Numbered from the stretch's first letter, positions 8,361-60,347 are shown. The stretch is 64,000 bases of DNA from Candidatus Omnitrophica bacterium UBA6233 (GCA_002440965.1 DJWJ01000033.1:7627-71626), one strand, 5' to 3'. A program made the numbers and translations. The notes: generated from the sequence alone by a model not told the origin.

Positions 8361-8570
8361 CAAATACTAAAACCCAAAATCAAATGTCAAAGCTCAAAAT
8401 TCAAAATAAATTTAAATGACAAATATCAAATGCTAAATCTTTGGTTTTGATATTTGTATTTTGAGTTTTGGATTTATTTTGGATTTTGAATTTTGTCATT
8501 TGAAATTAATCTTTTTGGTTTTAAATTGTGGTTTTGTCTTTTTACTTTTAACTTTTTACAGTTTTCTGGC
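8361..8570. repeat. palindromic intergenic element, family 1 (full-length, with tail module)
   Basis: caaatgtcaaagctcaaaattcaaaataaatttaaatgacaaa ... tttggatttattttggattttgaattttgtcatttg, plus the tail aaattgtggttttgtctttttacttttaac. Confidence 0.85.
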
Positions 8571-10709
8571 TGTTTTTTCTATATCGTAGGCTTCAATAAT
8601 ATCGCCTTCCATATATTGGTCAAATCCTGACACATTCATTCCGCATTCAAAACCTTCGGCTACTTCGCGCACATCATCCTTAAAACGTTTCAGGGAGGAA
8701 AGTTTCCCCTCAAAGATAACGCTGCCGTTCCTCACCACATCAATCATACAAGTACGATTGAATTTACCTTTGGTAACAAAACATCCGGCGATAGTTCCGG
8801 CGCGGGATAATTTCAACACCTTTCTTATCTCCGCCCGACCCAGAAAAACCTTTCTTAACTTCGGTTCCAGCATGCCTTCGATTGCCGCTTTTACGTCATT
8901 TGCCAACTCATAAATGATATTATAGGTTTTGACATCCACGCCTTCCTTGTTCACCAATTCCCGGGCCAAATCATCCATAGCAACGTTAAAACCCAGGATC
9001 AAAGCATCGGAAGCTACTGCCAGGATTACATCAGAATTGTTTATATTACCGACTCCGGCGTGTATTATATTCAGCTTTATCTCCGATACATTAAGTTTAT
9101 TCAAGGTTTCCTTGATAGCTTCCAACGATCCCTGAACATCCGCTTTGAGAATTACTTTCAGTTCTTTAATCTTACCTTCCAGAATCTGAGCGTGCAAATC
9201 TTCCAGGCTTATATGTTTAATGGTCTTTATCTGTTGTTGTTTTTCTTTTTCAGAGCGCGCTTCAGCTAAGCTCTTGGCTTGCTTTTCGTCAGCTATGGCA
9301 AAGAATTGTTCGCCTGCGCTGGGAACCCCTGATATACCCAATACTTCCACCGGGACCGAAGGAAGCGCGATTGTTACAGCCTGCCCATGATCATTAAACA
9401 TCGCGCGAATCTTGCCATAAAAATTCCCCACGATAATATTCTCGTTTAAATGCAGCGTGCCATTTTGAACCAATAAAGTCGCTACCGGACCCCGGCCTTT
9501 AGACATCTGAGCTTCGATAACTATACCCCGGGCAAAGCGGTTAGGATTGGCTTTTAATTCCAGCATCTGCGCTTCCAAGATAATCATCTCCAGTAAATTA
9601 TCAATACCTTCTCCTGTTTTTGCCGATACAGGAACAGTAATGGTTTTACCACCCCAATCTTCCGGGTTTAAATCCAGTTTGGCCAATTGTTTTTTGACTA
9701 AATCGATATCCGCTCCGGCTTTATCGATTTTATTTATAGCTACGATTATAGAAACTCCGGCTGCCCGGGCATGGTCAATTGCTTCTTGAGTCTGAGGCAT
9801 TATGCCGTCATCAGCTGCCACAACCAAAACGACTATATCCGTAATCTTGGCTCCGCGCGAACGCATAGCGGTAAAAGCTTCATGTCCCGGAGTATCCAAA
9901 AAAGTAATCTCGCCGTGATCGATAACTACCCTATATGCCCCAATGTGCTGAGTAATCCCGCCATGCTCGGATTCAGCAACTTTGGTTTTTCTTATGGCAT
10001 CCAGAAGCGAAGTCTTTCCATGATCAACATGGCCCATAAATGTAACTATCGGAGAACGGCCTTTTAAATCTTTGGCTTCATCTTTAGCTTGATGCGCGCT
10101 TAAGGCTGTTTCTTCTTCGCCTAAAGCTTTTTTAATCTTGCAGTGGTATTTTTCACAAATCTTGACGGTTGTTGCTTCGTCCAAAGCCTGATTTATTCCA
10201 ACCATTATCCTCGCATCCAATAGGTTCTTAATGATAACGGATGGTTTTTCCTGCAATTTGACTGCCAAATCCTTTACAGTAATAGGAAGCTCCAATTCTA
10301 ACTCTTTAAACTCTACAACTGCTACTACTGGTGCGGCTGCAGGCGCAACTTTAATCTCAGGTTTAATTTCAACCTTAGGTTCTATCTTTACCTCATGTTT
10401 AACAGGATGAACAACTGGTTTAGGATGCGGTTTAACTGCTGCTACCGATTCAATATGAGGAACAATTTTCGACTCTATTTTTGTAACAACGGGGTGCGCC
10501 TCAACAGGCTTTTTAATCTCATGATGCGCTGTCGTCTTCTCTATAACAGGCTTAACAACGGGCTTAGCCTTAACCGTTGCTGCTTTAACCGGTTTACCAA
10601 CTGGCTTAACAGCCTTAGCAATATGCTTAACCGGTTTGGCCACTTTCTTTATTTTTGGCTTAACTTCTTTTTTGACTGGCTTCTTTTCTTTTCTTGGTTT
10701 AACAACCAT
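8556..10709 (-). CDS. infB: translation initiation factor IF-2
   Basis: 717 aa. A low-complexity K/P/V-rich N-terminus, then G-domain [12 protein letters not shown]...DTPGHEAF...NKID. Confidence 0.9.
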
Positions 10710-10737
10710 AATACCTTCTTCCTGTTTTTAGGTAGCG

Positions 10738-11967
10738 TTATTTCTTCCCTTTGGCTTGGGCAACTAATTTCTCTGCCTTTTTCTCGCCAATACCTTTTAT
10801 CTTAGTCAAACCCTCTACTTTTGCTTCAAGTAAATCCGCGATAGTATTGATCCCGGCCTCTTTCAAACTAGCTAAAGTTTTCTCTCCCAAACCAGACAAT
10901 TCTTCCAGAGAAATTTCTTCTTTTTTCTTTTTCTTCTCTTTCTTGACCTTCTTCTCTTCAACAACCGGCTCTTCCGCGGCTTTCGCTTCTTCTTTAATCG
11001 CTTCTGCTTTTGCGGCAGCTTCAGCCAGAGCAGCTTTAGTGCGAATATCCAATTCCCAGCCGATAAGTTTAGATGCCAGCCGCACATTCTGACCATGTTT
11101 ACCTATAGCCAAAGACAACTGGTCATCGTCAACTATAACTTCGGCTTTCATACGCTCCTTATCCAGATTAATCTGCGAAACCTTGGCCGGAGAAAGAGCA
11201 TTCTTTATATATTCGCGGATATCATCATTAAAGCGTATAATATCAATCTTTTCTCCATAAACTTCATTCACGATATTTCTCACTCGGTTACCGCGCATAC
11301 CGACACAAGCCCCTACGGAATCGACTTTATCGTTTTTGGAATAAACAGCGATTTTTGTCCGTTCTCCCGCCTGACGGGATATTGCTTTAATCTCAACTAT
11401 TCCTTCGTAAATCTCAGGAACCTCCAGTTCAAATAATTTCTTCACAAAGTTCGGGTGAGTGCGTGACAGGATTATCTGGGCCCCTTTGGCTTCCTTTTTT
11501 ACTTCCAAGACAAAAGCCCGCACGCGCTGGCCCTGCTTGAATTCTTCTTTAGGCGACTGTTCACGCTTAAGCAAGACTCCCTCGGCCTTTCCCAAAAGAT
11601 CTATAACAATGTTTCCTTTTTCAAAGCGATAAACTGTTCCGCTTACAATCTCGCCGACCCTGCCCTGAAATTCACCGAAAACAACATCTTTTTCCGCTTC
11701 GCGCATTTTTTGGATGATTACCTGACGTGCGGTAGAAGCGGCTATGCGCCCAAAATCAATGGAAGTGATTTCCTCTTCATTCCTCCAAGCGCGGATCTTG
11801 CCGCTATTACGGTCAATCTCAACCTTAAATTCCTCATCCGGCTTAAGGTCGATTACGCGTTTGGCTGCGCTCAGCATTGCGCTCTCAACCGCCTGAATCA
11901 AAACCTCTTTTTTAATCCCTTTTTCTCTTTCAATCTGCTCGATTATCGCTAACAGTTCCTGACTCAT
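10738..11967 (-). CDS. nusA: transcription termination/antitermination factor NusA
   Basis: 409 aa with S1 and KH regions, a K/E-rich linker and a C-terminal HhH. It sits in the conserved rimP-nusA-infB order. Confidence 0.9.
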   Translation of the reverse strand: MSQELLAIIEQIEREKGIKKEVLIQAVESAMLSAAKRVIDLKPDEEFKVEIDRNSGKIRAWRNEEEITSIDFGRIAASTARQVIIQKMREAEKDVVFGEFQGRVGEIVSGTVYRFEKGNIVIDLLGKAEGVLLKREQSPKEEFKQGQRVRAFVLEVKKEAKGAQIILSRTHPNFVKKLFELEVPEIYEGIVEIKAISRQAGERTKIAVYSKNDKVDSVGACVGMRGNRVRNIVNEVYGEKIDIIRFNDDIREYIKNALSPAKVSQINLDKERMKAEVIVDDDQLSLAIGKHGQNVRLASKLIGWELDIRTKAALAEAAAKAEAIKEEAKAAEEPVVEEKKVKKEKKKKKEEISLEELSGLGEKTLASLKEAGINTIADLLEAKVEGLTKIKGIGEKKAEKLVAQAKGKK

Positions 11968-11982
11968 TTTTAATCTCCAATT

Positions 11983-12441: not shown

Positions 12442-12464
12442 TTTGAATGTAGTAGCTAAATTCC

Positions 12465-12605
12465 ACTTCAATGTCAAATGACAAAATCCAAATGACAAAT
12501 GAAATTCAAAACCCCAATGTCAAATATTTAAAACCAAAGTTTTATTATTTGGAATTTGACATTTAGATTTATTTTGGATTTTGAGTTTTGACATTTGACA
12601 TTAAA
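12465..12605. repeat. palindromic element, family 1 (inner portion)
   Basis: caaatgacaaaatccaaatgacaaatg...tttgacatttagatttattttggattttgagttttgacatttgacatt. It overlaps the rimP start region and the proS stop. Confidence 0.85.
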
Positions 12606-13771: not shown

Positions 13772-13772
13772 A

Positions 13773-15032: not shown

Positions 15033-16089
15033 TTATTCTCCCCATTTCAGACAAAAGTATCTTGACACAATCTTGAAAAGAAACCTTTTTAACCGGCTTG
15101 CCTTTTTTAAATAACAAACCTTCGGATTTTCCAAAAGCAATTCCTATATCAGCTTCTTTGGCTTCACCCGGGCCGTTGACTACGCAGCCCATTACTGCAA
15201 TTTTTAACGGCTTGGTCGATAGTCGATAGTCAATGGTCGATAGTTTCTCTTCTAACTCCCTAACCAGTTTTACCAGATCCACCTCACAGCGGCCGCAGGT
15301 AGGACAACTGATAATGCTATGCCCGAATTTACGTAAATCCAAGGATTCTAAGATAGCTTTACCGGCATAAATTTCCCTGGCAGGAGTATCTGTCAGGGAT
15401 ACCCTTATTGTATCACCAATCCCCTCTAATAGCAAAGCCCCTAAAGCAATACTTGTCTTTATCGCTCCACTAAAAGGAGAGCCTGTCGCGGTAACCCCCA
15501 GGTGCAGCGGATAATCGCAAAGATTAGCCAGTTTCCTGTAAGCGCTAACTGTATCCAAAACATCGGAAGCCTTTAAAGAAACAACGATATCGCGGAACTT
15601 AAAGCCTTCGATTATTTTTATATACTCCAACGCGCTATTTACTAATTTATCGGGCATATCCTTGGAGCGTGTTTCTTTCACTGAACCCGAATTTAAACCG
15701 ATCCTTAAAGGAATACGGGCGTCTTTTAACGCACTTACTACCTGCCTAATTTGGTCCTTCTTATAGATATTCCCCGGATTAAGCCTTATTTTATCCACTC
15801 CGCTGTCTATCGCCATTAGAGCCAAACGATAATCAAAATGGATATCCGCCACTATCGGCATCTTAACCTGTTCTTTAATCTTTCTCAGAGAACGCGCATC
15901 CAGATCATCCTTAACCGCTAACCTTATAATTTCACACCCCGCAGATTCCAATTCGCGCGCTTGACGCAAAACTCTTGCGGTATCAGAGGTTTTAAACTTG
16001 ATCATTGACTGTATCGCAATGGGATTATCCCCTCCGATTGAAACTCGGCCAATCTTAATTACCCTAGATTTTCTTCGTTTTATTACCAT
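15025..16089 (-). CDS. ispG: 4-hydroxy-3-methylbut-2-enyl-diphosphate synthase
   Basis: 354 aa with a GcpE TIM-barrel and CPTCGRCEVD Fe-S motifs. In-frame 7-nt tandem repeats (tcgatag-like) lie at about 15211-15246. Confidence 0.9.
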   Translation of the reverse strand: MVIKRRKSRVIKIGRVSIGGDNPIAIQSMIKFKTSDTARVLRQARELESAGCEIIRLAVKDDLDARSLRKIKEQVKMPIVADIHFDYRLALMAIDSGVDKIRLNPGNIYKKDQIRQVVSALKDARIPLRIGLNSGSVKETRSKDMPDKLVNSALEYIKIIEGFKFRDIVVSLKASDVLDTVSAYRKLANLCDYPLHLGVTATGSPFSGAIKTSIALGALLLEGIGDTIRVSLTDTPAREIYAGKAILESLDLRKFGHSIISCPTCGRCEVDLVKLVRELEEKLSTIDYRLSTKPLKIAVMGCVVNGPGEAKEADIGIAFGKSEGLLFKKGKPVKKVSFQDCVKILLSEMGRIND

Positions 16090-16091
16090 AG

Positions 16092-17171: not shown

Positions 17172-17174
17172 AGA

Positions 17175-19120: not shown

Positions 19121-19121
19121 A

Positions 19122-19832: not shown

Positions 19833-19876
19833 TGTAAGTTTAACTTAAAAGTAAAAATACAGAAGGTAAAGCTATT

Positions 19877-20052
19877 AATGTCAAAGGTCAAAGCCCAAAA
19901 TTCAAAATAAATCTAAATGACAAAATCCAAATGGCCAAACTTCTGTTCTAAAATTTGACATTTTAATTTTGGATTTATTTTGGATTTTAAATTTTGTCAT
20001 TTGTTATTAAACTTTCAAATTGTGGTTTTACTTTTTTTAACTTTTGACTTCT
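19877..20052. repeat. palindromic element, family 1 (full-length, centre variant ccaaatggccaaacttctgttctaaaat)
   Basis: gtcaaagcccaaaattcaaaataaatctaaatgacaaaatccaaatggcc...tttggatttattttggattttaaattttgtcatttg, plus the tail aaattgtggttttactttttttaacttttgac. Confidence 0.85.
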
Positions 20053-20075
20053 ATAATTGAATTACTGCTTGGATT

Positions 20076-21656: not shown

Positions 21657-21675
21657 ATTTAATTATACGGGTATA

Positions 21676-21810
21676 ATGACAAATGATAAAATTCAAAAAC
21701 CAAAATAAATCCAAAATTAAAATGTCAAATTTTAGAACAGAGGTTTGGCCATTTGGATTTTGTCATTTAGATTTATTTTGAATTTTGAGCTTTGTCATTT
21801 GACATTAAGC
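21676..21810. repeat. palindromic element, family 1 (same centre variant as 19877 copy, opposite orientation)
   Basis: The centre atgtcaaattttagaacagaggtttggccatttgg is the reverse complement of the centre of the 19877 copy. The arms are gacaaatgataaaattcaaaaaccaaaataaatccaaaa / ttttgtcatttagatttattttgaattttgagctttgtcatttgacatt. Confidence 0.85.
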
Positions 21811-22775: not shown

Positions 22776-22862
22776 AACATACCTCCGTCTTCCCTAATAA
22801 AAAAGGGGATTACTCTCCCCTTTTTTCAAGAACTGTATGGTCTGTTCTTTACCTCCCCTATT

Positions 22863-23237: not shown

Positions 23238-23240
23238 AAT

Positions 23241-23300
23241 TACATATACCCAGGATTGAATCTTGGAATTTTAAACATTCATTCGTCATTGAAACTTAGA
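23241..23300. repeat. partial family 2 element
   Basis: cccaggattgaatcttggaattttaaacattcattcgtcattgaaacttag shares the cattcgtcattg core with the 4921 and 32195 copies. Confidence 0.5.
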
Positions 23301-23318
23301 TACTGGTCATTATTAATA

Positions 23319-23969: not shown

Positions 23970-24017
23970 GGTTCACCTCTCCTTTTGTTGAAATTTACTA
24001 TAACACAGGCCTAAAAC

Positions 24018-25310
<1,293 letters not shown>

Positions 25311-26583: not shown

Positions 26584-26602
26584 AGCTAACTCCCTTTTAA
26601 AT

Positions 26603-26745
26603 TAATGACAAATGACAAAATTCAAAGCTCAAAATAAGCCCAAAGCACTAATGATAAATACCAAAACAAAAGTTTTGTTATTTGAAATTTGACCTTTGAA
26701 CCTATCTTGGATTTTGAGTTTTGACATTTGTCATTAAACTATCTA
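26603..26745. repeat. palindromic element, family 1 (diverged)
   Basis: aatgacaaatgacaaaattcaaagctcaaaataagcc...ttggattttgagttttgacatttgtcatt. Confidence 0.75.
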
Positions 26746-28586
26746 TTTTTTAACAATCTTTTCAATTCCTTCTTAGCAGGCGCTCCTTTAGAAGAAAAAA
26801 TCTGCTGGTTATCTATAAGATATGTCGGTCCAAACATAATTTTGGACTCTTTGGCTAAACTGATATTATTTCTCAACAGAGCCAAACCTTCCTGGCCGCG
26901 GGCGCAGGATTTTATCTTATTTAAATCGATTTTGACAGCGCAATCATCCCACCAAGAGCTACCGATATTCTTAACCCTGCAGGTAATATAATCCCAGAAT
27001 CTATCCGGATAATATTTTTGAACGCAAACAGCGCGCAAATCCTCTTCTATCTCCGCGTCTCCATTCATAGTTTCAATCTTATTCCCATCCATAACGGCCA
27101 AGAAGTGCAGTGCCGGGTTGAATTCTCTAACCACATTCAAAACCTCAAGCGTATTTTTCCCGAAGAGACTTATGAATAAATCGAATTTCCCTTTAATGCC
27201 CTGACGGTTAACAAGATACCCTATTCCGGCAACTTCGGGTTTCAATAGATAAAAATTATCCCTCTCAATGAACTTAGTTTTCAATTTATCGAAATTTTCT
27301 TCTTTGAATATTTCTTTTCCTAAAAGAAATACCGGTAAGCCAATCGCTTTGGAATCCTCAAACAGTTTTGCAGCTTTTTTGTCCGGATAATATAAATATG
27401 AAGTCTCTAGGCCCGGAAATTGCTTTTTAAGAAAACTTATCGCTGGTTCAGGGTTGCAAACCAAACAGTCTTTAGTGGTAATAACCGTAAGATTGATTTT
27501 GGCCGCCTTACTGAATGAACACTCGGCATTATATAACCCGGGATTCCTGCAGATTCCGATAAAACCTTCTTTCTTGCATTCAGTAGCCGAAAAACAGCGC
27601 GGTAAGATAGAAAGAATAGAGGGTTCGTCGCCAATCTTATCCGAAAGCCTCAATTCTTCAACCTTGAATTTCTTTATCTTATCGCCTCTAATACCAAGCA
27701 CGGCTTTTCCGAGCCGGCGGCCCTGCCAATTCGCACGCAGGATAACAGTATCCCCCGCCTTGCCAAATGAATCACTAATAGTATTGCCTCGACCGTGTCC
27801 ATCAATAAGAACAGAAATTCCCGGCACACCCCCGATAATCTTTAAATCCTCCTGTTCACCCAGGTTGCTTAAAAGGATAATCAGTTTGACTTTCTGCTTT
27901 TTCAATTCCCGGACTGACGATTCTACGGCCTGCTTAGGATCAATAAGTTTTAAATCCGGGCTTCTGCGTTCAGCCGCTAAATTCGTCAATCCTATAATAC
28001 CAACCTTTATACCCGCCACATTCCTGACGACATAAGGTTTAACCGTGCCAAGGCTTAAATTCGAAGAGACGAAATCTAATTTTGTTTTATTGATGTTCTC
28101 GCTCAAGAAATCTTTACCGAAATTGAATTCATCATTGCTTATATTTACCGCATCGTATTTCATTGATTCCATAGCAGAAAGGCTTATCTTCGCCCGCTGC
28201 ATATCTAATTGTGTATTCTGCGTATTCTGGTCCAAAGGCCCTGCGCTAAAGAAATTCCCTGAATCCAAGACCAAAACATCAGGATATTCTTTTCTTAATT
28301 GTTTGATTAAAGTTGCCCGGCGGGCTACTCCGCCATCCGGTTCAACAGGACAATTACAATGGTAAAGCATAGCATGCGTTTCACCGGTATAGATCAAGAC
28401 CAACTCTTTATCTTTAGTGTAAACGGAGCTAATGATAAGCGCCAAAACACAAATAACAAATGAAATCCAAATGACAAAATTCAAATGAGAAAACTTTTTA
28501 TAGTTTTGACATTTTAGATTTGGATTCATTTTTCCTGCTTGTTCGGCAGAAGGAGAATTTGGGATTTGGAATTTGGGATTGTTCAT
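26739..28586 (-). CDS. metallophosphatase/5'-nucleotidase (UshA-like) fused to C-terminal tandem thioredoxin/DsbA-like domains
   Basis: 615 aa. The N-half has calcineurin-like and 5'-nucleotidase motifs (VLDSGN, ISNDEFNFG). The C-half has CLVCNPE (a CxxC) and a DsbA-like FGPTYLIDNQ. The first ~45 codons are encoded by repeat sequence, so the true start is uncertain. Confidence 0.6.
   Translation of the reverse strand: MNNPKFQIPNSPSAEQAGKMNPNLKCQNYKKFSHLNFVIWISFVICVLALIISSVYTKDKELVLIYTGETHAMLYHCNCPVEPDGGVARRATLIKQLRKEYPDVLVLDSGNFFSAGPLDQNTQNTQLDMQRAKISLSAMESMKYDAVNISNDEFNFGKDFLSENINKTKLDFVSSNLSLGTVKPYVVRNVAGIKVGIIGLTNLAAERRSPDLKLIDPKQAVESSVRELKKQKVKLIILLSNLGEQEDLKIIGGVPGISVLIDGHGRGNTISDSFGKAGDTVILRANWQGRRLGKAVLGIRGDKIKKFKVEELRLSDKIGDEPSILSILPRCFSATECKKEGFIGICRNPGLYNAECSFSKAAKINLTVITTKDCLVCNPEPAISFLKKQFPGLETSYLYYPDKKAAKLFEDSKAIGLPVFLLGKEIFKEENFDKLKTKFIERDNFYLLKPEVAGIGYLVNRQGIKGKFDLFISLFGKNTLEVLNVVREFNPALHFLAVMDGNKIETMNGDAEIEEDLRAVCVQKYYPDRFWDYITCRVKNIGSSWWDDCAVKIDLNKIKSCARGQEGLALLRNNISLAKESKIMFGPTYLIDNQQIFSSKGAPAKKELKRLLKNR
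28430..28580. repeat. palindromic element (family 1 arm plus family 2-like ggatttggaatttgggatt) overlapping predicted 5' end of the 5'-nucleotidase ORF
   Basis: caaatgaaatccaaatgacaaaattcaaatgagaaaac...ttttgacattttagatttggatt...gggatttggaatttgggatt. Confidence 0.7.
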
Positions 28587-28588
28587 AT

Positions 28589-31322: not shown

Positions 31323-31355
31323 GCGTGAATCCTCCTAGTTGGTTACTTTAAACTA

Positions 31356-31552
31356 AAAAGTCTGAATGCAAAAGTCAAAATCACAAGTCAAAAAGCAAAA
31401 CTGTTAATATCAAAGCTCGGAGACCAAAATTCAAAATAAATCTAAATGACAAAGACCCAATGCCAAAACCTTGGTTTTGATATTTGAGCTTGGGGATTTA
31501 TTTTGGATTTCGAATTTTGTCATTTGTCACTACACTTTTTTACTTTTGCTAT
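31356..31552. repeat. palindromic element, family 1 (full-length with outer caaaagtcaaaa module)
   Basis: aatgcaaaagtcaaaatcacaagtcaaaaagcaaaactg...caaagctcggagaccaaaattcaaaataaatctaaatgacaaagacccaatgccaaaaccttggttttgatatttgagcttggggatttattttggatttcgaattttgtcatttgtcac...ttttttacttttgc. Confidence 0.85.
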
Positions 31553-31555
31553 ATT

Positions 31556-32173: not shown

Positions 32174-32194
32174 CTCCTTATGTTATATTAATGC

Positions 32195-32300
32195 CTAAAA
32201 AGTCCAAGCTTCAATGACGATTCAAATCCCAAGCTCCAATTTTATATATTGAATCATTGGGATTTTATTCGACATTGGGATTTGGTGATTGGACATTAGT
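32195..32300. repeat. palindromic element, family 2 (cccaat / caatgacgaatg type)
   Basis: aagtccaagcttcaatgacgattcaaatcccaagctccaatttta/tatattgaatcattgggattttattcgacattgggatttggtgattggacatt. Related copies are at 4921-5040 and 23241-23300. Confidence 0.7.
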
Positions 32301-32305
32301 ATATA

Positions 32306-39002: not shown

Positions 39003-39197
39003 ACTCAAAAGTTAAAACGCAAAAAACAAAACTGGCAATGTCAAATGACAAAGCTCAAAATTCAAAATAAATTTAAATGACAAAATCCAAATAGCCAAAC
39101 TTCTGTTTTGATATTTGACATTTGACCTTTGGATTTATTTTGGACTTTGTATTTTGTCATTTGTCATTTAAATTTCGACTTTACTTAATATTCATAA
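39003..39197. repeat. palindromic element, family 1 (full-length)
   Basis: aaactcaaaagttaaaacgcaaaaaacaaaactg...caatgtcaaatgacaaagctcaaaattcaaaataaatttaaatgacaaaatccaaatagccaaacttctgttttgatatttgacatttgacctttggatttattttggactttgtattttgtcatttgtcatt. Confidence 0.85.
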
Positions 39198-40135: not shown

Positions 40136-40195
40136 AATGAAGTAATAATTTTAGCATAATCCAGCGCTAAATCAACTAGATATTTATACTATTAT

Positions 40196-40660
40196 TGCCC
40201 TTAAGCAGAGCGTCAGGCTCGCTCTCATCAGCGGGTCCTGCCGCGGAAGTATCCCCATTCCTGCGGGCGGCCGTGCCGTCCTCGGAACGGGGAAGCCCCT
40301 CTTCCGCGTCACCTGCGCACAGCTCTTTCCGCTCGCTAGCTCTAGAGTAGACCCACTGTCCCGATTGAATTGGAAACAGGGAGTACTGCTCGCCACCCGC
40401 TAACGGACATATTAACTACAAATATGTTTATAAATGACACTGACAAGTTGAGCCGCGAATTAGAGCTTTTGTGGTTTTGGCGGAGCGCGCATTAGAAAAT
40501 TTTCGGCAAGTGAGTGCGAGGAATTACGGCGAACGGAGGACCTTCTCGAAAGCGTAAGTCTGTCCGGGAGTGAGCCGTAAACCGAAGCACTCGGCGAAAA
40601 TTTTCAGCGCGCGGAGACAAAACCGCAAAAGCTGCCTCACACGATGAGACTTAACAGTGG
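40196..40660. ncRNA. candidate structured non-coding RNA / regulatory leader (GC-rich island with long-range helices); identity and strand unresolved
   Basis: The local GC content is far above the window background. No credible ORF covers it; the 40184-40396 ORF translates to R/S/P-rich nonsense. A 170-nt domain at 40464-40633 closes with about 27 bp of near-perfect pairing, with interior helices GAAAAUUUUC..GAGUGC/GCACUC..GAAAAUUUUC and UUACGGC/GCCGUAA. The 5' half has hairpins at 40207-40225 and 40289-40299, and a CCGCGGAAG/CUUCCGCG stem at 40241-40249/40301-40308. Confidence 0.35.
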
Positions 40661-40671
40661 CATTTAAATTA

Positions 40672-42690
40672 TTAAACCTTGAGAATTGAATCCGCGGCAG
40701 AGATTACGTCCTCGACGCTTATTGCCTTTAGACAGGCGAATCCTTTCTGGCAATTGTGCGCCAAACATTCAATACAGGCAGCTTTATGCAGAATCCTGTC
40801 GCGCGCGCCCACCGGCCCCCATCTTTTCGGGCTTAACCCCGCCTGATTCCTTGCGAATATCGAAATGACCGGCGTACCCACGGCGCAAGCAATATGCACC
40901 GGGCCGGAATCGTTGGAAATAAAAAGCTGACATCTTTTTAATATGCCGGCTAACTGTGTTATGGAGGTTTTCCCGGCTAAATTTATGGCAGCAGAATGCA
41001 TATGTTTAATCAGGTTATCCGCAAGTTTATAGTCTTTTGCGCTGGATATGACTAAAATCTTGAAACCGTATTTTTGCGCTAACCTATCGGCTGCCTGAGC
41101 AAAGCGTTCAACCGGCCAAATCTTCGACGGACAACTGGCTGCCGGGTTAAGAGCCAATAACCTATCCGTTTCATTTACAGCCTCCTGTTTAAAGAATCCC
41201 TGAACCCACTTTTCAGAATCAATTCTTACCGGCATAAATAAACTTCTATCTTTTGCTTCAATCCCCAGATACCTCAACAAATCCAGGTTATATTCCGATT
41301 CATGTTTTTCGCCGAGTTGCTTGGTATGTTTGATTGCATCCGTAAGCAAAAATCCGAGCTTGCGGTCATAACCGATTCTTCTGGGTATACCGCTAAGAAA
41401 AGTTAACAAATGCACCCGGCTAGCCGGATGCAAAATCAGCGCCAAATCGAATTTCTCTTTTTTAAGTTCCCGGACCAATTTAACCGAACGAAACCAACCT
41501 TTATGTTTTCCTTCTTTGTCCAAAACAATCACTTTATCCAAATACGGATTGCCCGCGACTATGTCTTTAGCATACGGAGAAACCATCATCGCTATATAAC
41601 TCTGGGGAAATCTGTCTCTTAAAGCTTTGATCACCGGCGTAGACAAGAGCACATCGCCGATTCTATCCGTGCGCGCAATGAGTATACGCTTAAAATTATC
41701 CCGGCTCCTGGCTCTTGGCTCCTGGCTCTTGGAAGTAAAAATTTCCTTTACCGCCCTGAAAACATCCTCTGTTTTTACTAAAAATATACATTCTAAAGTC
41801 CCGAACCGGCATTGCGCTTTTTGGCATGGACGGCAAGAGATTTCTTTTTTAACTACAAAAGAATGCTCTGACCACGGGCCGTATTTAGCATCACTGGTTA
41901 TCCCGAATACCGCCACCACCGAAACATTTAAATAGCTTGCCAGATGCAAAGCCGCGCTATCATTCGTAACCAAAAGCCCGGCCCTCTTTATAAGATAACC
42001 TAATTCGCTTAATGAAGTCTTGGCGCCTAAATTCAAGGCCCCGGTATTTTGGGCTATATATTCATTGGTTGGCTCATCGTTTTTATCTCCGACTAAAACG
42101 ATTTTTACCGGTAACTCTTTGGACAATCTCTTGATTAATTCGACAAATCGCTCCTTTGGCCAACGCTTGGTGTGACTGCGGGCTCCTGCGGAAATTACGA
42201 TAAATTTATCACTCTGGCCTATCCCGCCTTCTTTTAATAAACTGTCCACCTTCTCCCGGCTAGCCCCGCTGAAATGAAGCGACTTACCGGCTTCTGCCGC
42301 ATGCAGACCTTTAAGGATTCTCCCGATTTTATAAAGATGCCTGTCTTTAGCATGTTTTACATCTTTGGGTATGCGCGTATAAAAAGAGGTTTTATATCTG
42401 GCCGCAAGAAGTACTCCGAAAAAACTATTTCGCAGGTCAACCACCGCCTCAAACCTCTCCTTCCATAAAAAAATCAGCAATTTTATGTTTTCTCTGAGGC
42501 TTGAGCGTTTTTCATATACGATCAAACGCTGGATATCGGGATTCCCTTCAAAAATGCCCCTTGCCCGGGCTCCGCAGATCACGGTAACTTTTGCTTCAGG
42601 AAACTTTTTCCGAAGACTATCCAATACCGGCAAGGTAAGGATTACGTCGCCGATATTACTTAGAGTAATGAAGAGGATTTTATTAACCAT
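40672..42690 (-). CDS. tandem double glycosyltransferase family 9 (heptosyltransferase-like) fusion protein
   Basis: Two complete GT9 modules, each with N-terminal ILxxxxxxIGDVLLSTP-type and C-terminal ND(S/T)GPxHxAxAxGTP motifs. The track ORF starts at 42777, but the first 29 codons are repeat-encoded, so I place the start at MVNKILFITLSNIGDV (42690). Confidence 0.7.
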   Translation of the reverse strand: MVNKILFITLSNIGDVILTLPVLDSLRKKFPEAKVTVICGARARGIFEGNPDIQRLIVYEKRSSLRENIKLLIFLWKERFEAVVDLRNSFFGVLLAARYKTSFYTRIPKDVKHAKDRHLYKIGRILKGLHAAEAGKSLHFSGASREKVDSLLKEGGIGQSDKFIVISAGARSHTKRWPKERFVELIKRLSKELPVKIVLVGDKNDEPTNEYIAQNTGALNLGAKTSLSELGYLIKRAGLLVTNDSAALHLASYLNVSVVAVFGITSDAKYGPWSEHSFVVKKEISCRPCQKAQCRFGTLECIFLVKTEDVFRAVKEIFTSKSQEPRARSRDNFKRILIARTDRIGDVLLSTPVIKALRDRFPQSYIAMMVSPYAKDIVAGNPYLDKVIVLDKEGKHKGWFRSVKLVRELKKEKFDLALILHPASRVHLLTFLSGIPRRIGYDRKLGFLLTDAIKHTKQLGEKHESEYNLDLLRYLGIEAKDRSLFMPVRIDSEKWVQGFFKQEAVNETDRLLALNPAASCPSKIWPVERFAQAADRLAQKYGFKILVISSAKDYKLADNLIKHMHSAAINLAGKTSITQLAGILKRCQLFISNDSGPVHIACAVGTPVISIFARNQAGLSPKRWGPVGARDRILHKAACIECLAHNCQKGFACLKAISVEDVISAADSILKV

Positions 42691-42699
42691 AATTAATTT

Positions 42700-42850
42700 T
42701 GATCGCGGCTGTTTTAATGTCAAAGCCCAAAAATTCAAAATGACAAATACCCAATGACAAAACCTTGGTTTTGACATTTGTAATTTTGATTTTGAATTTA
42801 TTTTGGGCTTTGAATTTTGTCATTTGTCATTACACTTTTTACTTCTTCTA
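42700..42850. repeat. palindromic element, family 1 (between the two GT9 genes; supplies stop of upstream gene and spurious 5' extension of downstream gene)
   Basis: ttttaatgtcaaagcccaaaaattcaaaatgacaaatacccaatgacaaaaccttggttttgacatttgtaattttgattttgaatttattttgggctttgaattttgtcatttgtcattacactttttacttc. Confidence 0.85.
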
Positions 42851-43853
42851 TCACCTCATCCGGAGTAATGGCTTTCATGCAGCGGTTATCGTGACAACTG
42901 GTTTCGTAACAGGGGATTTTACAGCCCACGTTTTTTTGCAGGATAATTACATTTTTTAGCGGATACGGCCCGGTAATCGCGGGAGAGGTAGGGCCAAAAA
43001 GAGCGATTATCTTCTTTGCTCCTACGCTATTGGCGATATGCAGCGGCCCGGTATCGGCGGTAATAAATAAACTCGCCCTTCTTGCCAACGCGCCGAATTG
43101 CTTTATATTAAATACGCCGCAGGCCACTAGGGGTTTATGTATCATTTTATCCCGGATATAAGTAACTAATGACAAGTCATTAACCGCTCCGGTGAGGATA
43201 ATTTTAGCCCCAAATTTTTCGACTAATTTATCCGCTAAAACCGGCCAATAATCTTTAGGCCAGCGTTTAGGCGACCAATTTCCTCCGGGATTGCATACCA
43301 CAATAAAATCATTATCCTTGACCGAATTTTTCCTAAAGAAATCTTCCATGAAAGCATTATCTTCAACGCTTATAAAAAAATCTGTATACCGGTCTTCTAT
43401 CCTCAGCCCTGATTTTTCGATGACATCAAGATAATAATCTATGCGGTGCAAAGAATCTCTTTGGGGAGGAATAATTTTCTTTGTAAGCAGAAAGGCCCTT
43501 TTTTTAGTGAGATGTCCTATCCTTTCGGGTATACCTGCCAGACGGCAAATCAGGGCCCGGCTAAATGACTTGTGCAGGAGAAAAACTGCGTCGAACTTCT
43601 TGAGCCGAAGAACACGTATGAAACTTAACAAAGAAAACACGCCCTTATGCCTGTCTTTCTCGTCAAAGATGATTATCTCATCCAGATACGGATTGCCTTT
43701 CAAAACAGGATAACACCTCGGAGGAATAATACAGGCCAAGTAACTCTCCGGATAGTTATGCCGGATATTCCTGATTACTGCGGTAGAAAATAGCACATCC
43801 CCTAACCAATTGACATTAAAGACCAATATCTTTTTGTAACTTTTGGCATTCAT
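42798..43853 (-). CDS. glycosyltransferase family 9 (ADP-heptose:LPS heptosyltransferase, WaaC/WaaF-like)
   Basis: 351 aa GT9 with NWLGDVLFSTAVI and TADTGPLHIANSVGAKKIIALFGPTSP. The C-terminal ~14 codons and the stop lie within a repeat copy. Confidence 0.75.
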   Translation of the reverse strand: MNAKSYKKILVFNVNWLGDVLFSTAVIRNIRHNYPESYLACIIPPRCYPVLKGNPYLDEIIIFDEKDRHKGVFSLLSFIRVLRLKKFDAVFLLHKSFSRALICRLAGIPERIGHLTKKRAFLLTKKIIPPQRDSLHRIDYYLDVIEKSGLRIEDRYTDFFISVEDNAFMEDFFRKNSVKDNDFIVVCNPGGNWSPKRWPKDYWPVLADKLVEKFGAKIILTGAVNDLSLVTYIRDKMIHKPLVACGVFNIKQFGALARRASLFITADTGPLHIANSVGAKKIIALFGPTSPAITGPYPLKNVIILQKNVGCKIPCYETSCHDNRCMKAITPDEVIEEVKSVMTNDKIQSPK

Positions 43854-45723: not shown

Positions 45724-45737
45724 ATATTCTTAAATTA

Positions 45738-45920
45738 CAAAGGTCAAAGCTCAAAATTCAAAATAAATCTAAATGACAAATACCAAATGAAAAAACCTTA
45801 GTTTTGATATTTGTGTTTTTAGTTTTGGATTTATTTTGTGCTTTGAATTTTGTCATTTGTCATTAAACTTTCTACTTTTAAATTGTGGTTTTGACTTCTG
45901 ATTTGTTACTTTCTACTTCG
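45738..45920. repeat. palindromic element, family 1 (full-length with tail module)
   Basis: aaaggtcaaagctcaaaattcaaaataaatctaaatgacaaataccaaatgaaaaaaccttagttttgatatttgtgtttttagttttggatttattttgtgctttgaattttgtcatttgtcatt, plus aaattgtggttttgacttctg. Confidence 0.85.
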
Positions 45921-45925
45921 GCTAT

Positions 45926-48046
45926 TTACTTGAGTAATTTCTCTATTGCTTCCAGCACTTCCTCAACCGTAATCAAATTCATGCACTTTTTATGCCTGCA
46001 TTTTGGTTTATAGCAGGGGCTGCAGGGCAATTCCCTTCTGATGATTACACGCTCTCTTGCCGGAGGCATATGCCTTGCCGGATCAGTCGGGCCAAAAAAA
46101 GCGATTACCGGGATATTCACCGCGCAAGCTACATGTAAAGGCGAAGAATCCGCTGAAATATACAGAGAACAGCGTTTAATAAGCGCGGCTAACTGGTTAA
46201 TGCTGGTCTTGGCGCAGGCATTAATGATCTTGGTGCTCTTTACCATCGAGGCTAACATATTAGCTTGAGCCACGTCCTCCTGTGTTCCGGTAACAACCAC
46301 GCGTATATTCTTGAGGCCGAGTTCATCGCATAATTTAGCCAAGCGTTCTTTAGGCCAACACTTGGTTAACCACCGTTTACTAGCGCTGATATTTATCCCG
46401 ATAATTTTCTGGTCGGCGCTTAACCATTCCTTATTCAGGAAATTCTCAATATACTCTTGGTCTTCTTTGCTCGGCCATAATTCCAAACGGTTATCCCGCA
46501 AATCTATCCCCAGCATCTTCAATACGCGGAACTGATGCGTAACCGGGTCCATAGCCGGTTTTTCATCTTTGATCCGGTGGTTAAGCAGAAAACCAAACCT
46601 CTTGTTATCATAACCAAAACGATCAGGGGCCAAAGAAAGGAAAGAAAGCAAATGGCTGGCTTTGTTATTCTGCAGGTCAATGACCAAATCAAAATTCTTT
46701 TTTCTTAACGAGCGGGCAATATTCAAAAATCCCTTAACTCCTTTATCCTTATTTTTAAGGTCGACCACCAGTAGTTCGTCTATATAAGGGCTTCTAAGCA
46801 AAACCTCTTTGGATTCTTCTCCGACCATAAAACTGATTTTATGCTGGGGGAATTTCTCCCTTATCGCCCGCAAACCCGGCGTAGACAGAATCACGTCTCC
46901 CAGAGAACTCAACTTGATAATTAAAAGCTTAAAGCTGGTTAACGCGTCCTTATAAACATCAAGCGTATTGTTCACCATCAACTCGACGCTATATTTCTCT
47001 TTCACCTTCTGGTAGGCTGCTTCGGCAAAATTACGCGCTAATTCCGGATCCTTGTATATTTTAATCACCGCTTCGGCTATGCTTTGAGGATCGCTTGGCG
47101 CTACCATCAATCCTGTGCGGCCATTCTCAATAATATCAACTACGCCTCCCACTTTGGTCGCTACAACCGGCACACCGGATGCCTGCGCTTCCACAATCAC
47201 CCTGCCAAAGGCTTCATGCGTCGTCGTAGCCAAAACCACCAGATCCAAATTGGACAAGACTTCCGGGATATTCCTTTGCGTGCCTAAAAATTCCGTGCAA
47301 TGGTCAAGCCCTAACCTTCTGGTCAAAACCTGTATCTGTTCTTTATAAGCTTGCCGCGAACTCGGAGCATCCCCGACTATCCAGATTTTTAAATTCGGCA
47401 CAACCCGGGCTACCTTAGCCATAGCCTTGATAAAAAAGAGATGCCCCTTTAACGGAGTAATCCTGCCGATAATGCCGACGTTAAAATCCTTGCCGCGTTT
47501 CTTATCCGGACTCAAGTATTTAAATTTCTCCAAATCTACGCTGCGGGGAACCAGCTTAATCCGGTCATGCGGAACTTGAAAATCTTCGATCATGTGCCGG
47601 GCAATTATGTTACTTAAAACTATCACCCGCTTGGCCCATCCCATCACATAACTAAAAGGATGCTTTTTGTAATAACCATGGCAAGTAGTAACAAAGACGG
47701 TTTTTGTCGAACGAGCCGCAAAATAAGCAATCCAAGCCGGAACTCGCGAACGGGCATGCACAATATCGATTTCTTCTTTTTTGATAATCTCAATCAACCG
47801 GGGAATAGTTCTAATTATACTGATGAAGGATTTTCTATGCACCGGGAGCTGGTAATGAATCCCCCCCAGCGCCTCTAGATCCTTAACCAGCGAGCCGCCG
47901 GCAGAAACCACCACTGCTTTATGGCCCAGGCGCACCAAATACTTAGATAAATCCAGGGTTCCGGTTTCAACCCCGCCGACATTCAGTTCAGGTAATATTT
48001 GTAGAATATTCATAATTTTCAATTCGAAGTTAATGTCAAAGGCCAA
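45926..48046 (-). CDS. GT4 glycosyltransferase fused to C-terminal GT9 heptosyltransferase-like domain
   Basis: 706 aa. Residues ~1-365 are GT4 (EAQASGVPVVATKVGG). Residues ~370-706 are GT9 (LIIKLSSLGDVILSTP...SADSSPLHVACAVNIPVIAFFGPTDP). Confidence 0.7.
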   Translation of the reverse strand: MAFDINFELKIMNILQILPELNVGGVETGTLDLSKYLVRLGHKAVVVSAGGSLVKDLEALGGIHYQLPVHRKSFISIIRTIPRLIEIIKKEEIDIVHARSRVPAWIAYFAARSTKTVFVTTCHGYYKKHPFSYVMGWAKRVIVLSNIIARHMIEDFQVPHDRIKLVPRSVDLEKFKYLSPDKKRGKDFNVGIIGRITPLKGHLFFIKAMAKVARVVPNLKIWIVGDAPSSRQAYKEQIQVLTRRLGLDHCTEFLGTQRNIPEVLSNLDLVVLATTTHEAFGRVIVEAQASGVPVVATKVGGVVDIIENGRTGLMVAPSDPQSIAEAVIKIYKDPELARNFAEAAYQKVKEKYSVELMVNNTLDVYKDALTSFKLLIIKLSSLGDVILSTPGLRAIREKFPQHKISFMVGEESKEVLLRSPYIDELLVVDLKNKDKGVKGFLNIARSLRKKNFDLVIDLQNNKASHLLSFLSLAPDRFGYDNKRFGFLLNHRIKDEKPAMDPVTHQFRVLKMLGIDLRDNRLELWPSKEDQEYIENFLNKEWLSADQKIIGINISASKRWLTKCWPKERLAKLCDELGLKNIRVVVTGTQEDVAQANMLASMVKSTKIINACAKTSINQLAALIKRCSLYISADSSPLHVACAVNIPVIAFFGPTDPARHMPPARERVIIRRELPCSPCYKPKCRHKKCMNLITVEEVLEAIEKLLK

Positions 48047-48150
48047 AGCTCAAAATCCAAAATAAATCCAAAACTCAAATACCAAAACGAGGATTTTGTC
48101 ATTTGGTATTTGTAATTTGTGCTTATTTTGAATTTTGTCATTTTTCATTA
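48030..48150. repeat. palindromic element, family 1 (diverged, short)
   Basis: ttaatgtcaaaggccaaagctcaaaatccaaaataaatccaaaactcaaataccaaaacgaggattttgtcatttggtatttgtaatttgtgcttattttgaattttgtcatttttcatt. Confidence 0.75.
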
Positions 48151-48161
48151 CGCTTCTTAAT

Positions 48162-51111: not shown

Positions 51112-51200
51112 CTTAGTCTATTATGATAACACAGGGAAAAACAAGAAGCAACTGCTTTTGCTAGGAAGAAAACTCTTTTAATTATAAGGAGATATGATAG

Positions 51201-51851: not shown

Positions 51852-51857
51852 TGGGGA

Positions 51858-53841: not shown

Positions 53842-53858
53842 ATCCTATCTTTTCTTTC

Positions 53859-54749: not shown

Positions 54750-54950
54750 AGCGCAAAAGCCAAAACCACAACTAAAAATTAAAACTGTTTATTCAGATTA
54801 ATGACAAATGTCAAAGCACAAAATTCAAAATAAATTTAAATGACAAATACCTAATGACAAAACATGGGTTTTGATATTTGGATTTTGAGTTTTGGATTTA
54901 TTTTGGGCTTTGAATTTTGTCATTTGACATTAGGCTTTTTACTTTTGCCT
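54740..54950. repeat. palindromic element, family 1 (full-length with outer module caaaagccaaaaccacaa)
   Basis: aaagcgcaaaagccaaaaccacaactaaaaattaaaactg...aatgacaaatgtcaaagcacaaaattcaaaataaatttaaatgacaaatacctaatgacaaaacatgggttttgatatttggattttgagttttggatttattttgggctttgaattttgtcatttgacatt...ctttttacttttgcc. Confidence 0.85.
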
Positions 54951-54956
54951 TTTTAT

Positions 54957-58081: not shown

Positions 58082-58158
58082 AATAATTTACAAAAACCGT
58101 CCGCGAAACACATATTACAAATCTCCTATTCCTCTAGTTTTGGGTTTTGCGCTAATTT

Positions 58159-58713: not shown

Positions 58714-58777
58714 CTCAATCTAAAAGTGTCCCCGGATAGGGGACAGTTTTGCTCTGGTTTGAGAACCGTCCCCTTGG

Positions 58778-59041
58778 TTATTCCTTATACGCTGTCAAAA
58801 CCGCCTCGCATAGCTGCGTTTTGAGTTCCTTAGTGGTAGGATAAACTGTGTTATACCACTTGCCATCTTTACCCTGATGCCTCGGCATGCTGACGAATAA
58901 CCCCTGGCTGCCATCAACTATGCTAAAACCCTTGATTATTATCCCTGCCAACGACACATCGGCAAAGGCCTTCAGCTTTGATTCGCCGCTAAACCGATAG
59001 ATCCGGCTAACCTGTATTTCCTTGCCATCCATTGTAATCAC
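58778..59041 (-). CDS. spoVG: SpoVG family protein
   Basis: 87 aa. The SpoVG family pattern is present (FADVSL...I.GF.I.....GLFVSMP). Confidence 0.75.
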   Translation of the reverse strand: MITMDGKEIQVSRIYRFSGESKLKAFADVSLAGIIIKGFSIVDGSQGLFVSMPRHQGKDGKWYNTVYPTTKELKTQLCEAVLTAYKE

Positions 59042-59078
59042 CCCCTTCTAACTCAATAGACGTAAGGGATGAGGTTTT

Positions 59079-60119
59079 CTAACTAATTCTCTTTAAATAA
59101 TTCTTAAAGTTATCTTGGATATCCCCTAAGGAGTCTGCACCGAATTTCTCCAGCAAAGCATCGGCTAAAACAAACGCGCTTGCCGCCTCCGCAACCACCG
59201 CCGCAGCAGCCACTACCGAAGTATCCGAACGCTCGGTAGCTGCCTTGGAAGCCCTTTTGTTGTTTATATTAACTGAACATAAAGGATTCATCAAAGTGCA
59301 TATGGGTTTCATACAGGCGCGTAAAATTATATCTTCGCCGTTAGATATGCCGCCTTCGATTCCGCCGGCATTATTTGTTTTATGGAAATACCCCTTGGGC
59401 CTGGAATAAAAAATCTCATCGTGCACTTCCGAGCCAAAACTAACCGCATACCCTAACCCCAAGCCTATCTCCAGCGCTTTTATTCCAGGAATAGATATTA
59501 ACGCCTGCGCCAGCTTTCCATCCAAACGCCTGTCAGGCTGGACATAACTTCCCAAGCCTACTGGCGCGCCTTTGATGGTTACCTCAAATATTCCGCCAAC
59601 AGTATCTTTATTTTTTATAGCTTCGCTTATTTTAGCTTTCATACCCGGAGGGCTGTTTTCGCCGCCAACAGACAAAACCCGGCTGGTAATGTTAATTTTG
59701 AATTCATTCAATAAAATCTTGCATAACGCGCCTATGCCAACGGTTGCCGCGGTGCTCCGGGCAGAAGCGCGCTCCAAAACTTCCCTTATATCCGAAAAGC
59801 CGTATTTTAACAACCCGGCCAAATCCGCATGCCCCGGTCGGGGGCACAATACCTTATGGAGTTTCTCGATGCTAGAATCTTTGTTTTCGACAAGAAGCGT
59901 GATAGGGCTGCCTAAAGTCGTGTTGTTTTTTAAGCCCGAAAGAAGTTTGGCCCGGTCATTCTCAATCTGCATACGCTTGCCCCGGCCAAATCCGGACTGC
60001 CTGCGTTTTAATTCTTTATTAATCAGTTCCGGGGTTATCCTAAGGCCTGCCGGCATACCTTCCAAAATCGCAACTATTGCCTTGCCATGCGATTCACCTG
60101 CGGTTAAAAGACGCAGCAT
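59079..60119 (-). CDS. aroC: chorismate synthase
   Basis: 346 aa. MLRLLTAGESHG and downstream conserved blocks (GRSSARET-like SARSTAATV). Confidence 0.9.
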   Translation of the reverse strand: MLRLLTAGESHGKAIVAILEGMPAGLRITPELINKELKRRQSGFGRGKRMQIENDRAKLLSGLKNNTTLGSPITLLVENKDSSIEKLHKVLCPRPGHADLAGLLKYGFSDIREVLERASARSTAATVGIGALCKILLNEFKINITSRVLSVGGENSPPGMKAKISEAIKNKDTVGGIFEVTIKGAPVGLGSYVQPDRRLDGKLAQALISIPGIKALEIGLGLGYAVSFGSEVHDEIFYSRPKGYFHKTNNAGGIEGGISNGEDIILRACMKPICTLMNPLCSVNINNKRASKAATERSDTSVVAAAAVVAEAASAFVLADALLEKFGADSLGDIQDNFKNYLKRIS

Positions 60120-60162
60120 ACTGTCTCCTTTCGTGTTGCCCCGCGATAATTCAACTGTAAGT

Positions 60163-60347
60163 TTGACTCAAAAGTTAAAATGTAAAACCAAAAACTGTTA
60201 AGGTCAAAGGTCAAAGCTCAAAATTCAAAATAAGCACAAATGACAAATAGCAAATGACAAAACTCCAGTTTTGATATTTGACATTTGAGTTTTAGATTTA
60301 TTTTGAGCTTTGAATTTTGTCATTTGTCATTAAGCTTTTGACTTTAT
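60163..60347. repeat. palindromic element, family 1 (full-length)
   Basis: gactcaaaagttaaaatgtaaaaccaaaaactg...aaggtcaaaggtcaaagctcaaaattcaaaataagcacaaatgacaaatagcaaatgacaaaactccagttttgatatttgacatttgagttttagatttattttgagctttgaattttgtcatttgtcatt...gcttttgactttat. Confidence 0.85.

Follow-up and report, generated by a model that had tools for sequence, protein, structure and literature searches.

Correia elements, enterobacterial repetitive intergenic consensus (ERIC) sequences, repeat units of pneumococcus (RUP) and Rickettsia palindromic elements (RPE) form a class of bacterial miniature inverted-repeat transposable elements, or MITEs (PMC10969869, PMC2649163, PMC2229807), MITEs being 50-800 bp long (PMC11602168). 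The Correia elements of Neisseria (CREE/NEMIS) are palindromic and non-coding, 100-200 bp long, dense, mostly intergenic and co-transcribed; their cognate transposase is not known, and strains vary in their presence or absence (PMC2649163, PMC10969869). RPE are palindromes of ~150 bp that can lie in frame in protein-coding genes (PMC10969869), and ERIC, or intergenic repeat units (IRU), and RUP/BOX, of enterobacteria and pneumococcus, are imperfect palindromes of ~100-130 bp in transcribed intergenic regions, where they can alter mRNA stability (PMC10969869, PMC3049150, PMC2229807). Short tandemly repeated repetitive (STRR) sequences have served as a fingerprinting marker (PMC5088731). Here we analyse a family of palindromic repeats, called family 1, in a stretch of 64,000 nt from Candidatus Omnitrophica bacterium UBA6233 (GCA_002440965.1, DJWJ01000033.1:7627-71626), the whole of which is referred to as the window. 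We take family 1, with a probability of roughly 0.65, for a palindromic repeat of the MITE kind, non-autonomous and belonging to an uncultured Omnitrophota lineage. It would be a family of the Correia/ERIC/RPE type, new for this uncultured and widespread phylum, and not a new regulatory system. No description of repeats in Omnitrophota was found in the literature searched.

Family 1 as a hairpin built of heptamers

An earlier note on this DNA had proposed at least 13 copies, in both orientations, each a strict inverted repeat. Searches with blastn, using two query copies, and with an nhmmer profile built from 12 aligned copies, yielded 12 strong copies (scores 98-135) and a weak one (Table 1), which bears out the count. 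They span positions 8374-60341, fragments being found also beyond these limits. The 36-nt inner arm quoted in the note occurred seven times with at most 3 mismatches, and the quoted centre three times, when shuffled sequences led us to expect none of either. Eight strong copies are oriented one way and four the opposite way; the copies starting at 19875 and 21668, 90% identical, are an example of such an inverted pair. The strictness of the inverted repeat did not hold, as the quoted arm and its exact reverse complement never occurred together in one copy; the matches on the minus strand came from copies in the opposite orientation. Density was ~1 copy per 5 kb, both in the window and in the metagenome-assembled genome (MAG) STD1_202 (JAQUOO01), which shares ~93% identity with the window along 8 kb and has 3-4 copies per 10-16 kb of contiguous sequence.

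The element consists of a 136-bp core with the ends TAATG(T/A)CAAATG … CATTTG(T/A)CATTA, made of a mosaic of ~16 heptamers, CAAANNN in the 5′ arm and NNNTTTG in the 3′ arm. Bounded by TTAATG and CATTAA, this core measured exactly 136 bp in 37 of 73 anchored copies from many genomes, and the remaining lengths (122, 129, 143, 157, 171) were mostly off by multiples of 7. Tandem Repeats Finder (TRF) accordingly gave a period of 7 or 14 inside copies. Copies are AT-rich, and with outer arms the total size is 120-220 bp. The terminal inverted repeat, TAATG(T/A)CAAATG(T/A)CAAA, is complementary to the other end and exceeds the 10-15 bp by which MITEs are recognised; its pairs were kept in 54-100% of 37 copies. 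As the base flanking TAATG…CATTA varies (left T>A,C,G; right A>C,T,G), the conserved element ends at TA. The right flank frequently continued as ACTTTT…, which corresponds to the outer-arm heptamers, and flanks following the hairpin were T-rich. Of the outer-arm pair, which the earlier note had attributed to the longest copies, four long copies had the motif on one side only (at 8526, 31369, 45883 and 54754); it was paired only at 4602(+)/4663(-), in a palindrome that has no inner element.

The consensus folded as a single long hairpin (-49 kcal/mol, z = -8.9 relative to shuffled sequences), in agreement with the long imperfect hairpin described previously, and individual copies gave z values of -3.1 to -6.3. 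Arms paired at 76% of strict mirror positions, and at 87% of the pairs of the minimum free energy structure. This pairing was carried almost wholly by the invariant CAAA/TTTG tetramers, the variable triplets being systematically mismatched, and pairing still amounted to 62-65% when the partner arm was moved by ±7. No covariation was detected between the arms, either over predicted pairs (87.4% of cells paired compared to 87.5±0.3 after shuffling, score 0.069 in both cases) or in the mirror register (0.763 compared to 0.772±0.003).

Beyond the window, an exact right-arm pattern with 26 specified bases was found in at least 89 stretches, from 34 species-level assemblies among the matches listed, of which 26 were labelled Omnitrophota or Omnitrophica. 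The motif is thus not bound to this region, which agrees with the mobile element that had been proposed. Sources of the Omnitrophota-labelled assemblies include groundwater, the Black Sea, Guaymas and a marine biofilm. The other labels among the matches listed were Planctomycetia or Planctomycetales (4 third-party annotation, TPA, bins) and, once each, Elusimicrobia, Schekmanbacteria, Wildermuthbacteria and Patescibacteria. Full-length copies in matched assemblies were 72-91% identical to the window consensus. Full or near-full copies outside the Omnitrophota label were seen in L065 (4525-4646, Patescibacteria), L041 (5356-5449, Wildermuthbacteria) and L036 and L071 (both Planctomycetia-labelled TPA bins); such copies could reflect mis-binning, mislabelling or real transfer across phyla. 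No viral contig matched the family pattern.

Insertion into tight junctions and later turnover

Relatives were compared at 80 loci orthologous around the GH57 gene (67-97% amino acid identity, up to 10 kb on each side). In 70 of the 80, no family-1 match was found, and tight junctions, TAATG or TAAnATG, stood where the window has elements. Orthologous gaps therefore do not carry the element unchanged, a second result in line with its mobility. The junction between the upstream gene and GH57 read …AAATAATATG… in relatives, and the GH57-uppS junction …TAAaATG… or overlapping codons. Family 1 was present at a window site only in L094, the 97% relative, while L100 and L117 had family-1 variants downstream of GH57. 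At the 21668 site, L095 and L096 were empty (TAAtATG), L094 had another centre and L143 a hairpin of a second family (family 2, see below); at the 26601 site, relatives had a short gap carrying a Shine-Dalgarno motif; and a distant MAG locus, L032, had an element in the gap matching the 45733 site. In relatives, a locus of 15-21 kb had 2-5 gaps measuring 60 nt or more and between 0 and 2 long palindromes (none in 23 of 33), compared to 22 such gaps and 11 long palindromes in the 64 kb of the window. The distribution is patchy: L095, 84-92% identical to the window at the amino acid level, is element-free, and L028, L009 and L032, at 62-78%, bear elements. Some lineages carry the family at high density; closer relatives lack it, and more distant ones have it. 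As regards strain polymorphism, an exact-protein look-up yielded only JGI, ENA and Logan contigs of one uncultured strain, 99.98-100% identical to the window along the part recovered.

A filled and an empty state of one site were found in L100 and L161, whose flanks are 88-90% identical; L104 and L099 were empty too. The empty site reads cataaaTAAtATG in L161, and the filled one cataagTAA[aatccagatgacaaagc … gctttgacatttgatatTAA]tATG in L100. A whole 150-nt unit has arrived there exactly between stop and start codon (TAA-TATG), with at most 3 nt (TA or TAA) on both sides and no intermediate. Where the earlier note saw no flanking direct repeats, this one pair shows that a short terminal duplication of TA or TAA is compatible with the ends. 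We conclude that whole units were inserted into formerly tight co-directional junctions, often exactly between stop and start.

The same comparison bears on the proposal that copies never transposed, and are heptamer satellite arrays of the STRR kind, grown in place by two-strand slippage and homogenised by recombination between loci. Such arrays would explain why the period is 7 nt and why lengths change in steps of 7, and they do exist nearby, in the pure array at 107-139 and in other heptamer arrays that occupy the same sites in relatives; the exchange of centres between copies, the lack of covariation and the lack of a transposase (see below) would suit them as well. They would not account for the fact that, in at least 30 species-level MAGs, unrelated loci share one succession of variant heptamers across 136 nt and have identical ends, nor for the one-step difference between L100 and L161, and we regard this origin as unlikely.

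These other heptamer arrays and palindromes, made of the lineage-specific units catccag, gttcatg, tagttcg and caaaagg, were seen in L104, L118, L098, L138 and L100, at sites orthologous to window positions 28590 and 31323-31555. Their occurrence at shared junctions suggests a general tendency of the clade to 7-nt repeats. Period-7 arrays were also present inside long open reading frames (ORFs) of the window, GTCGATA x 4.3 at 15215-15244 and TCCTGGC x 4.9 at 41699-41732, which is unusual for coding sequence.

Once inserted, copies change. Pairwise identity of the window copies was 59-90%, so that the resident copies are old. Between strains ~92-93% identical, orthologous copies had their centre overwritten, or swapped for the second hairpin family. 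Orthologous copies from close strains frequently resembled each other less than their flanks did. At the 60197 site, the copies of the window and of STD1_202 were 78% identical between flanks of 93-94% identity; at the 54797 site, the two copies were 93% identical. The 21668 copy was 82% identical to the same-site copy of L094, the difference being limited to the central 60-70 nt between identical ends, and the L094 copy was 88-91% identical to copies at the 54797 site. The inverted copies on either side of GH57 (19875 and 21668) share a private centre. In L094 (GH57 protein 97% identical to that of the window, DNA ~92%), the centre of the downstream GH57 copy was replaced by a family-2 hairpin and a GC-rich stem, and in L143 (GH57 protein 92% identical) family 2 took the place of family 1 at the upstream site. 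Of a family-2 element that L094 has in full, the window retains one half, at 23238-23318. Copies are modified in several ways: heptamers are gained or lost, half of an element is deleted, and the central 60-70 nt are exchanged for another copy's centre or for the second family. Presumably, hairpin centres undergo gene conversion, template switching or re-insertion.

Family 2 is a hairpin of the form …caccaaatcccaaat … atttgggatttgg…, sometimes with a GC-rich centre cctgcctgtcggtaggcagg. It was seen in the window at 32174-32305, 23238-23318 and about 4940-5023, and in relatives at L143 1160-1346 and at L094 1216-1302 and 4520-4720.

This turnover raises the question of whether such palindromes are transposon derivatives at all. 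They could instead make up a distinct class of self-propagating heptamer arrays, copied by hairpin templating or recombination and overwriting resident hairpins. This would account together for the swapped centres, the nesting, the 7-nt steps, the orientation bias (see below), and the absence of both covariation and a transposase; we give it a small chance. If true, it would mean that such palindromes persist in operons because the hairpin sets the upstream stop beside the downstream start, so that coupling survives an insertion of 150-250 nt, and that A-rich and T-rich arms, when in frame, can supply the charged and the hydrophobic segments of a signal peptide.

Table 1. Family-1 copies and related outer-arm repeats of the window (positions counted from its first nucleotide)
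Feature	Position	Strand	Score	Remarks
Tandem array of outer-arm heptamer	107..139	.		pure ACTTTTG x 4.7; TRF, 100% matches
Outer-arm-heptamer palindrome	4581..4692	.	18.3	no inner element; centre AAAAGTTTTAACTTTTGG
Family-1 copy	8374..8515	+	119.8	nhmmer, blastn; between infB stop and next gene; long form reaches ~8553, right outer-arm motif 8526-8543
Family-1 copy	12463..12604	-	113.0	between class II tRNA synthetase gene and rimP
Family-1 copy	19875..20016	+	123.9	downstream of GH57 gene; junction empty in relatives, TAAnATG
Family-1 copy	21668..21810	-	125.1	upstream of GH57 gene
Family-1 copy	26601..26738	-	116.9	
Degenerate copy	28430..28580	+	47.5	in frame within N-terminus of ORF 26739-28586
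Family-1 copy	31403..31539	+	119.3	left outer-arm motif 31369-31386
Family-1 copy	39034..39177	+	130.9	
Shortened copy, 120 nt	42715..42839	+	105.0	
Family-1 copy	45733..45873	+	129.1	right outer-arm motif 45883-45900
122-nt copy	48025..48151	-	98.3	two heptamers below modal length; overlaps ORF ends
Family-1 copy	54797..54940	+	134.2	left outer-arm motif 54754-54771
Family-1 copy	60197..60341	+	135.2	

Genes around the elements are all housekeeping ones, among them infB, nusA, rimP, topA, a class II tRNA synthetase and the GH57 branching enzyme, with lipopolysaccharide heptosyltransferase, aroC, aroK and queuosine genes as further neighbours. Of the 15 internal gaps that reach 100 nt, ten contain a copy, and none of the ~25 shorter gaps does; the statement that the family fills almost every gap has to be qualified accordingly. 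An ORF of 87 amino acids that resembles SpoVG by eye was noticed at 58778-59041 (-), in a seemingly empty gap; that an element was overlooked in this gap is less probable than that the gap is coding.

The absence of coding capacity, also put forward in the earlier note, holds for most copies. The exceptions are the degenerate copy at 28430, which lies in frame, and the copies at 12463, 42715 and 48025, which overlap ORF ends. The 12463 copy overlaps mechanically predicted ORF ends on both sides (-35/-35). The 42715 copy provides the final 13 codons and the stop of ORF 42798-43853, and the mechanical start of ORF 40672-42777 comes from it too (overlaps -62/-41). In-frame hairpin elements were observed in four lineages (ORF 26739-28586 of the window and its orthologues in L117, L100 and L111), in the signal-peptide-like region of what looks like a secreted protein, and more than one element family is represented among them. 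Translated, the A-rich arm gives a run rich in K/N/Q and the T-rich arm one rich in F/L/I, and the region ends in an AxA-like site (SYA-QE, AFA-KE). This region is 45-57 amino acids long with the element (window 28400-28586), compared to 24-30 in element-free relatives.

Proposed mobilisation and possible effects

Family 1 is like a MITE in its size, its AT-richness, its inverted ends, the number of its copies and its presence/absence polymorphism, and in having no coding capacity itself. Its copies would be mobilised in trans by a transposase encoded elsewhere, and the symmetric ends would be best served by a TA-duplicating DDE enzyme of the IS630/Tc1 type. Duplication of TA would leave perfectly symmetric ends (ATG(T/A)CAAATG…), as in elements of that type. 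After insertion, copies may be homogenised by gene conversion or by template switching at the hairpin. They would be co-transcribed in operons as long AU-rich hairpins, and tolerated there, as insertions within genes would be lethal and the base of the hairpin would keep stop and start codons close; effects on expression, by RNA processing or partial uncoupling, would be secondary.

Several observations weigh against a MITE. The autonomous partner transposase that the earlier note suggested looking for, with matching ends, was found neither in the window nor in ~1.7 Mb of fetched loci. Pairs of ends 0.26-4.5 kb apart, and intervals filled by an ORF, contained housekeeping genes only (among them argC, argJ, ahcY, pfkA, an ABC ATPase and a radical-SAM-like protein), and Pfam, run on 20 window proteins, returned housekeeping families only, with no transposase and no Y1_Tnp match. 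The target duplication, of 2-10 bp in MITEs, is known here from a single filled/empty pair that involves a divergent member (hidden Markov model score 50), and the TA or TAA could belong to the element ends instead of a duplicated target. No recent burst is visible among copies as dissimilar as those of the window. The heptamer mosaic, with arms that do not covary, is untypical of described MITEs. Finally, a cut-and-paste enzyme alone does not predict the 3.3:1 bias in orientation described next.

Among the strong copies, 86 of 89 sit between co-directional genes and none in a convergent gap. Their orientation relative to the gene strand was 66:20 (p = 7e-7, an optimistic value, because copies from one genome are not fully independent). 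Almost all window genes lie on the minus strand. It was also observed that ~60 kb of genes are nearly all on one strand, and that the GC skew of the plus strand is constantly negative (-0.08 to -0.22), which makes gene orientation and replication direction inseparable in the window.

A strong bias relative to the gene strand, and probably to the replication strand, would fit movement as single-stranded DNA. A Y1/HUH enzyme, acting in the manner of IS200/IS605 derivatives or of repetitive extragenic palindromic (REP) sequences, bacterial interspersed mosaic elements (BIME) and REP-associated tyrosine transposases (RAYT), would then recognise the hairpin and insert it 3′ of a short target (…TAA), with no true duplication. 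The entire element is indeed a hairpin, neither the window nor the fetched loci yielded a DDE partner, and in the L100 insertion both the left flank and the element end in TAA. A TAA shared by flank and element end resembles the two cleavage sites, left and right, of IS608-type elements. The L100 junction is compatible with an insertion of IS200/IS605 type and with a duplicating one. However, symmetric inverted-repeat ends suit TA-duplicating DDE elements better; the unit is 136 nt long, not the 20-40 nt of a REP, and lacks its conserved GT(A/G)G head; and no Y1 transposase was present among the 20 proteins scanned. Movement in this manner is in our opinion improbable.

Another alternative, already raised in the earlier note, is a conserved module acting in cis, such as a promoter, a bidirectional terminator or attenuator, a small RNA or an array of protein-binding sites. 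Arguments for it are the non-random orientation, the T-rich flanks after the hairpin, a sequence conservation of 80-90% across species, and the direction of an exact TTGACA, which points to the downstream gene in 32 of 69 copies and to the upstream one in 16 of 69. Complete -35/-10 pairs were nevertheless not commoner on the sense side (16 versus 13), and TTGACA had no consistent -10 partner. Promoter-like matches between 8 and 27 kb of the window were at chance level (39, with 39.8±7.4 expected), as were terminator-like ones in the same region (22, with 19.5±5.0 expected), and no element was called a terminator. RNA folds showed no strand preference (sense -36.4, antisense -36.7 kcal/mol), and Rfam gave no match over the whole window at gathering thresholds. 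Since, in addition, the element is missing at the orthologous sites of most relatives and its arms do not covary, we consider such a module very unlikely. Two narrower candidates were rejected. An intrinsic terminator was discarded on the AT-rich stems and the chance-level scan, despite the T-rich flanks, and a structured RNA family with compensatory pairs on the absent covariation and the lack of an Rfam match.

An effect of position on translation is compatible with the predicted folds. The hairpin would span nearly the full gap, its base lying, in 9 of 10 gaps, between a point 3 nt within the stop codon and one 32 nt past it, and a Shine-Dalgarno-like motif is missing at 6 of 10 downstream genes, whose orthologues in relatives overlap stop and start. 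Both features are compatible with a coupling that the hairpin would preserve.

Two further observations concern RNA. No tRNA or tmRNA gene was found in the window. A G+C-rich non-coding island of 536 nt, between two minus-strand genes at 40136-40671, contains a long hairpin gagcgcgcattagaaaattttcggc … gccgaaaattttcagcgcgcggag; its minus strand folds at -199.9 kcal/mol (z = -4.8), with no Rfam match at E≤1, and its motif gcattagaaaatttt repeats in the gap 1947-2537. This island may be an undescribed structured RNA.

Making up ~3% of the window, family 1 gives rise to the majority of its long intergenic gaps, makes ORF ends longer or shorter, and adds to the length of a signal peptide. In these MAGs, it will therefore lead astray the calling of genes, the prediction of operons, and assembly or binning. 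The family could be used as a marker of strain-level variation, and it offers a natural experiment in which tightly coupled operons tolerate hairpins of 150-250 nt between stop and start.

Comparison with known systems

We liken family 1 to the Correia/ERIC/RUP/RPE class in how it works. Correia elements duplicate TA upon insertion. They resemble family 1 in being palindromic, non-coding, dense and placed between genes, a likeness by description; the lineage is different. They have defined promoters, an IHF site and RNase III processing, whereas promoter scans of family 1 remained at chance, and only family 1 is built of heptamers. With RPE, family 1 shares hairpin elements in frame, in the signal-peptide region of four lineages. 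Unlike RPE, however, only 1 of the 13 window copies is in frame, the others being intergenic, and lineage and sequence differ. ERIC/IRU and RUP/BOX have no heptamer periodicity and a far lower density; ERIC is largely fixed at orthologous sites, whereas family 1 is patchy and often overwritten.

REP/BIME-RAYT systems, like family 1, are intergenic palindromes within operons with a non-random orientation. Yet REP measure 20-40 nt, have a GT(A/G)G head and go with a linked Y1 transposase gene, and membership of family 1 was ruled out by its length, by the head missing from the 136-nt consensus and by the absence of Y1_Tnp from the 20 window proteins. As for elements derived from IS200/IS605, which insert with strand bias 3′ of a short target and have neither inverted terminal repeats nor a duplication, the bias of family 1 fits and its symmetric ends do not.

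By its heptamer construction, family 1 is tied to the heptanucleotide repeats of cyanobacteria. There, STRR sequences and the nested small dispersed repeats of Nostoc have a 7-nt unit, are intergenic, and nest in or replace other hairpin repeats. STRR share with family 1 the tandem 7-nt units, with period 7 and length steps of 7, and the intergenic position. They are nevertheless plain tandem arrays, whereas family 1, in another phylum, is a fixed inverted composite of 136 bp that is copied as a unit.

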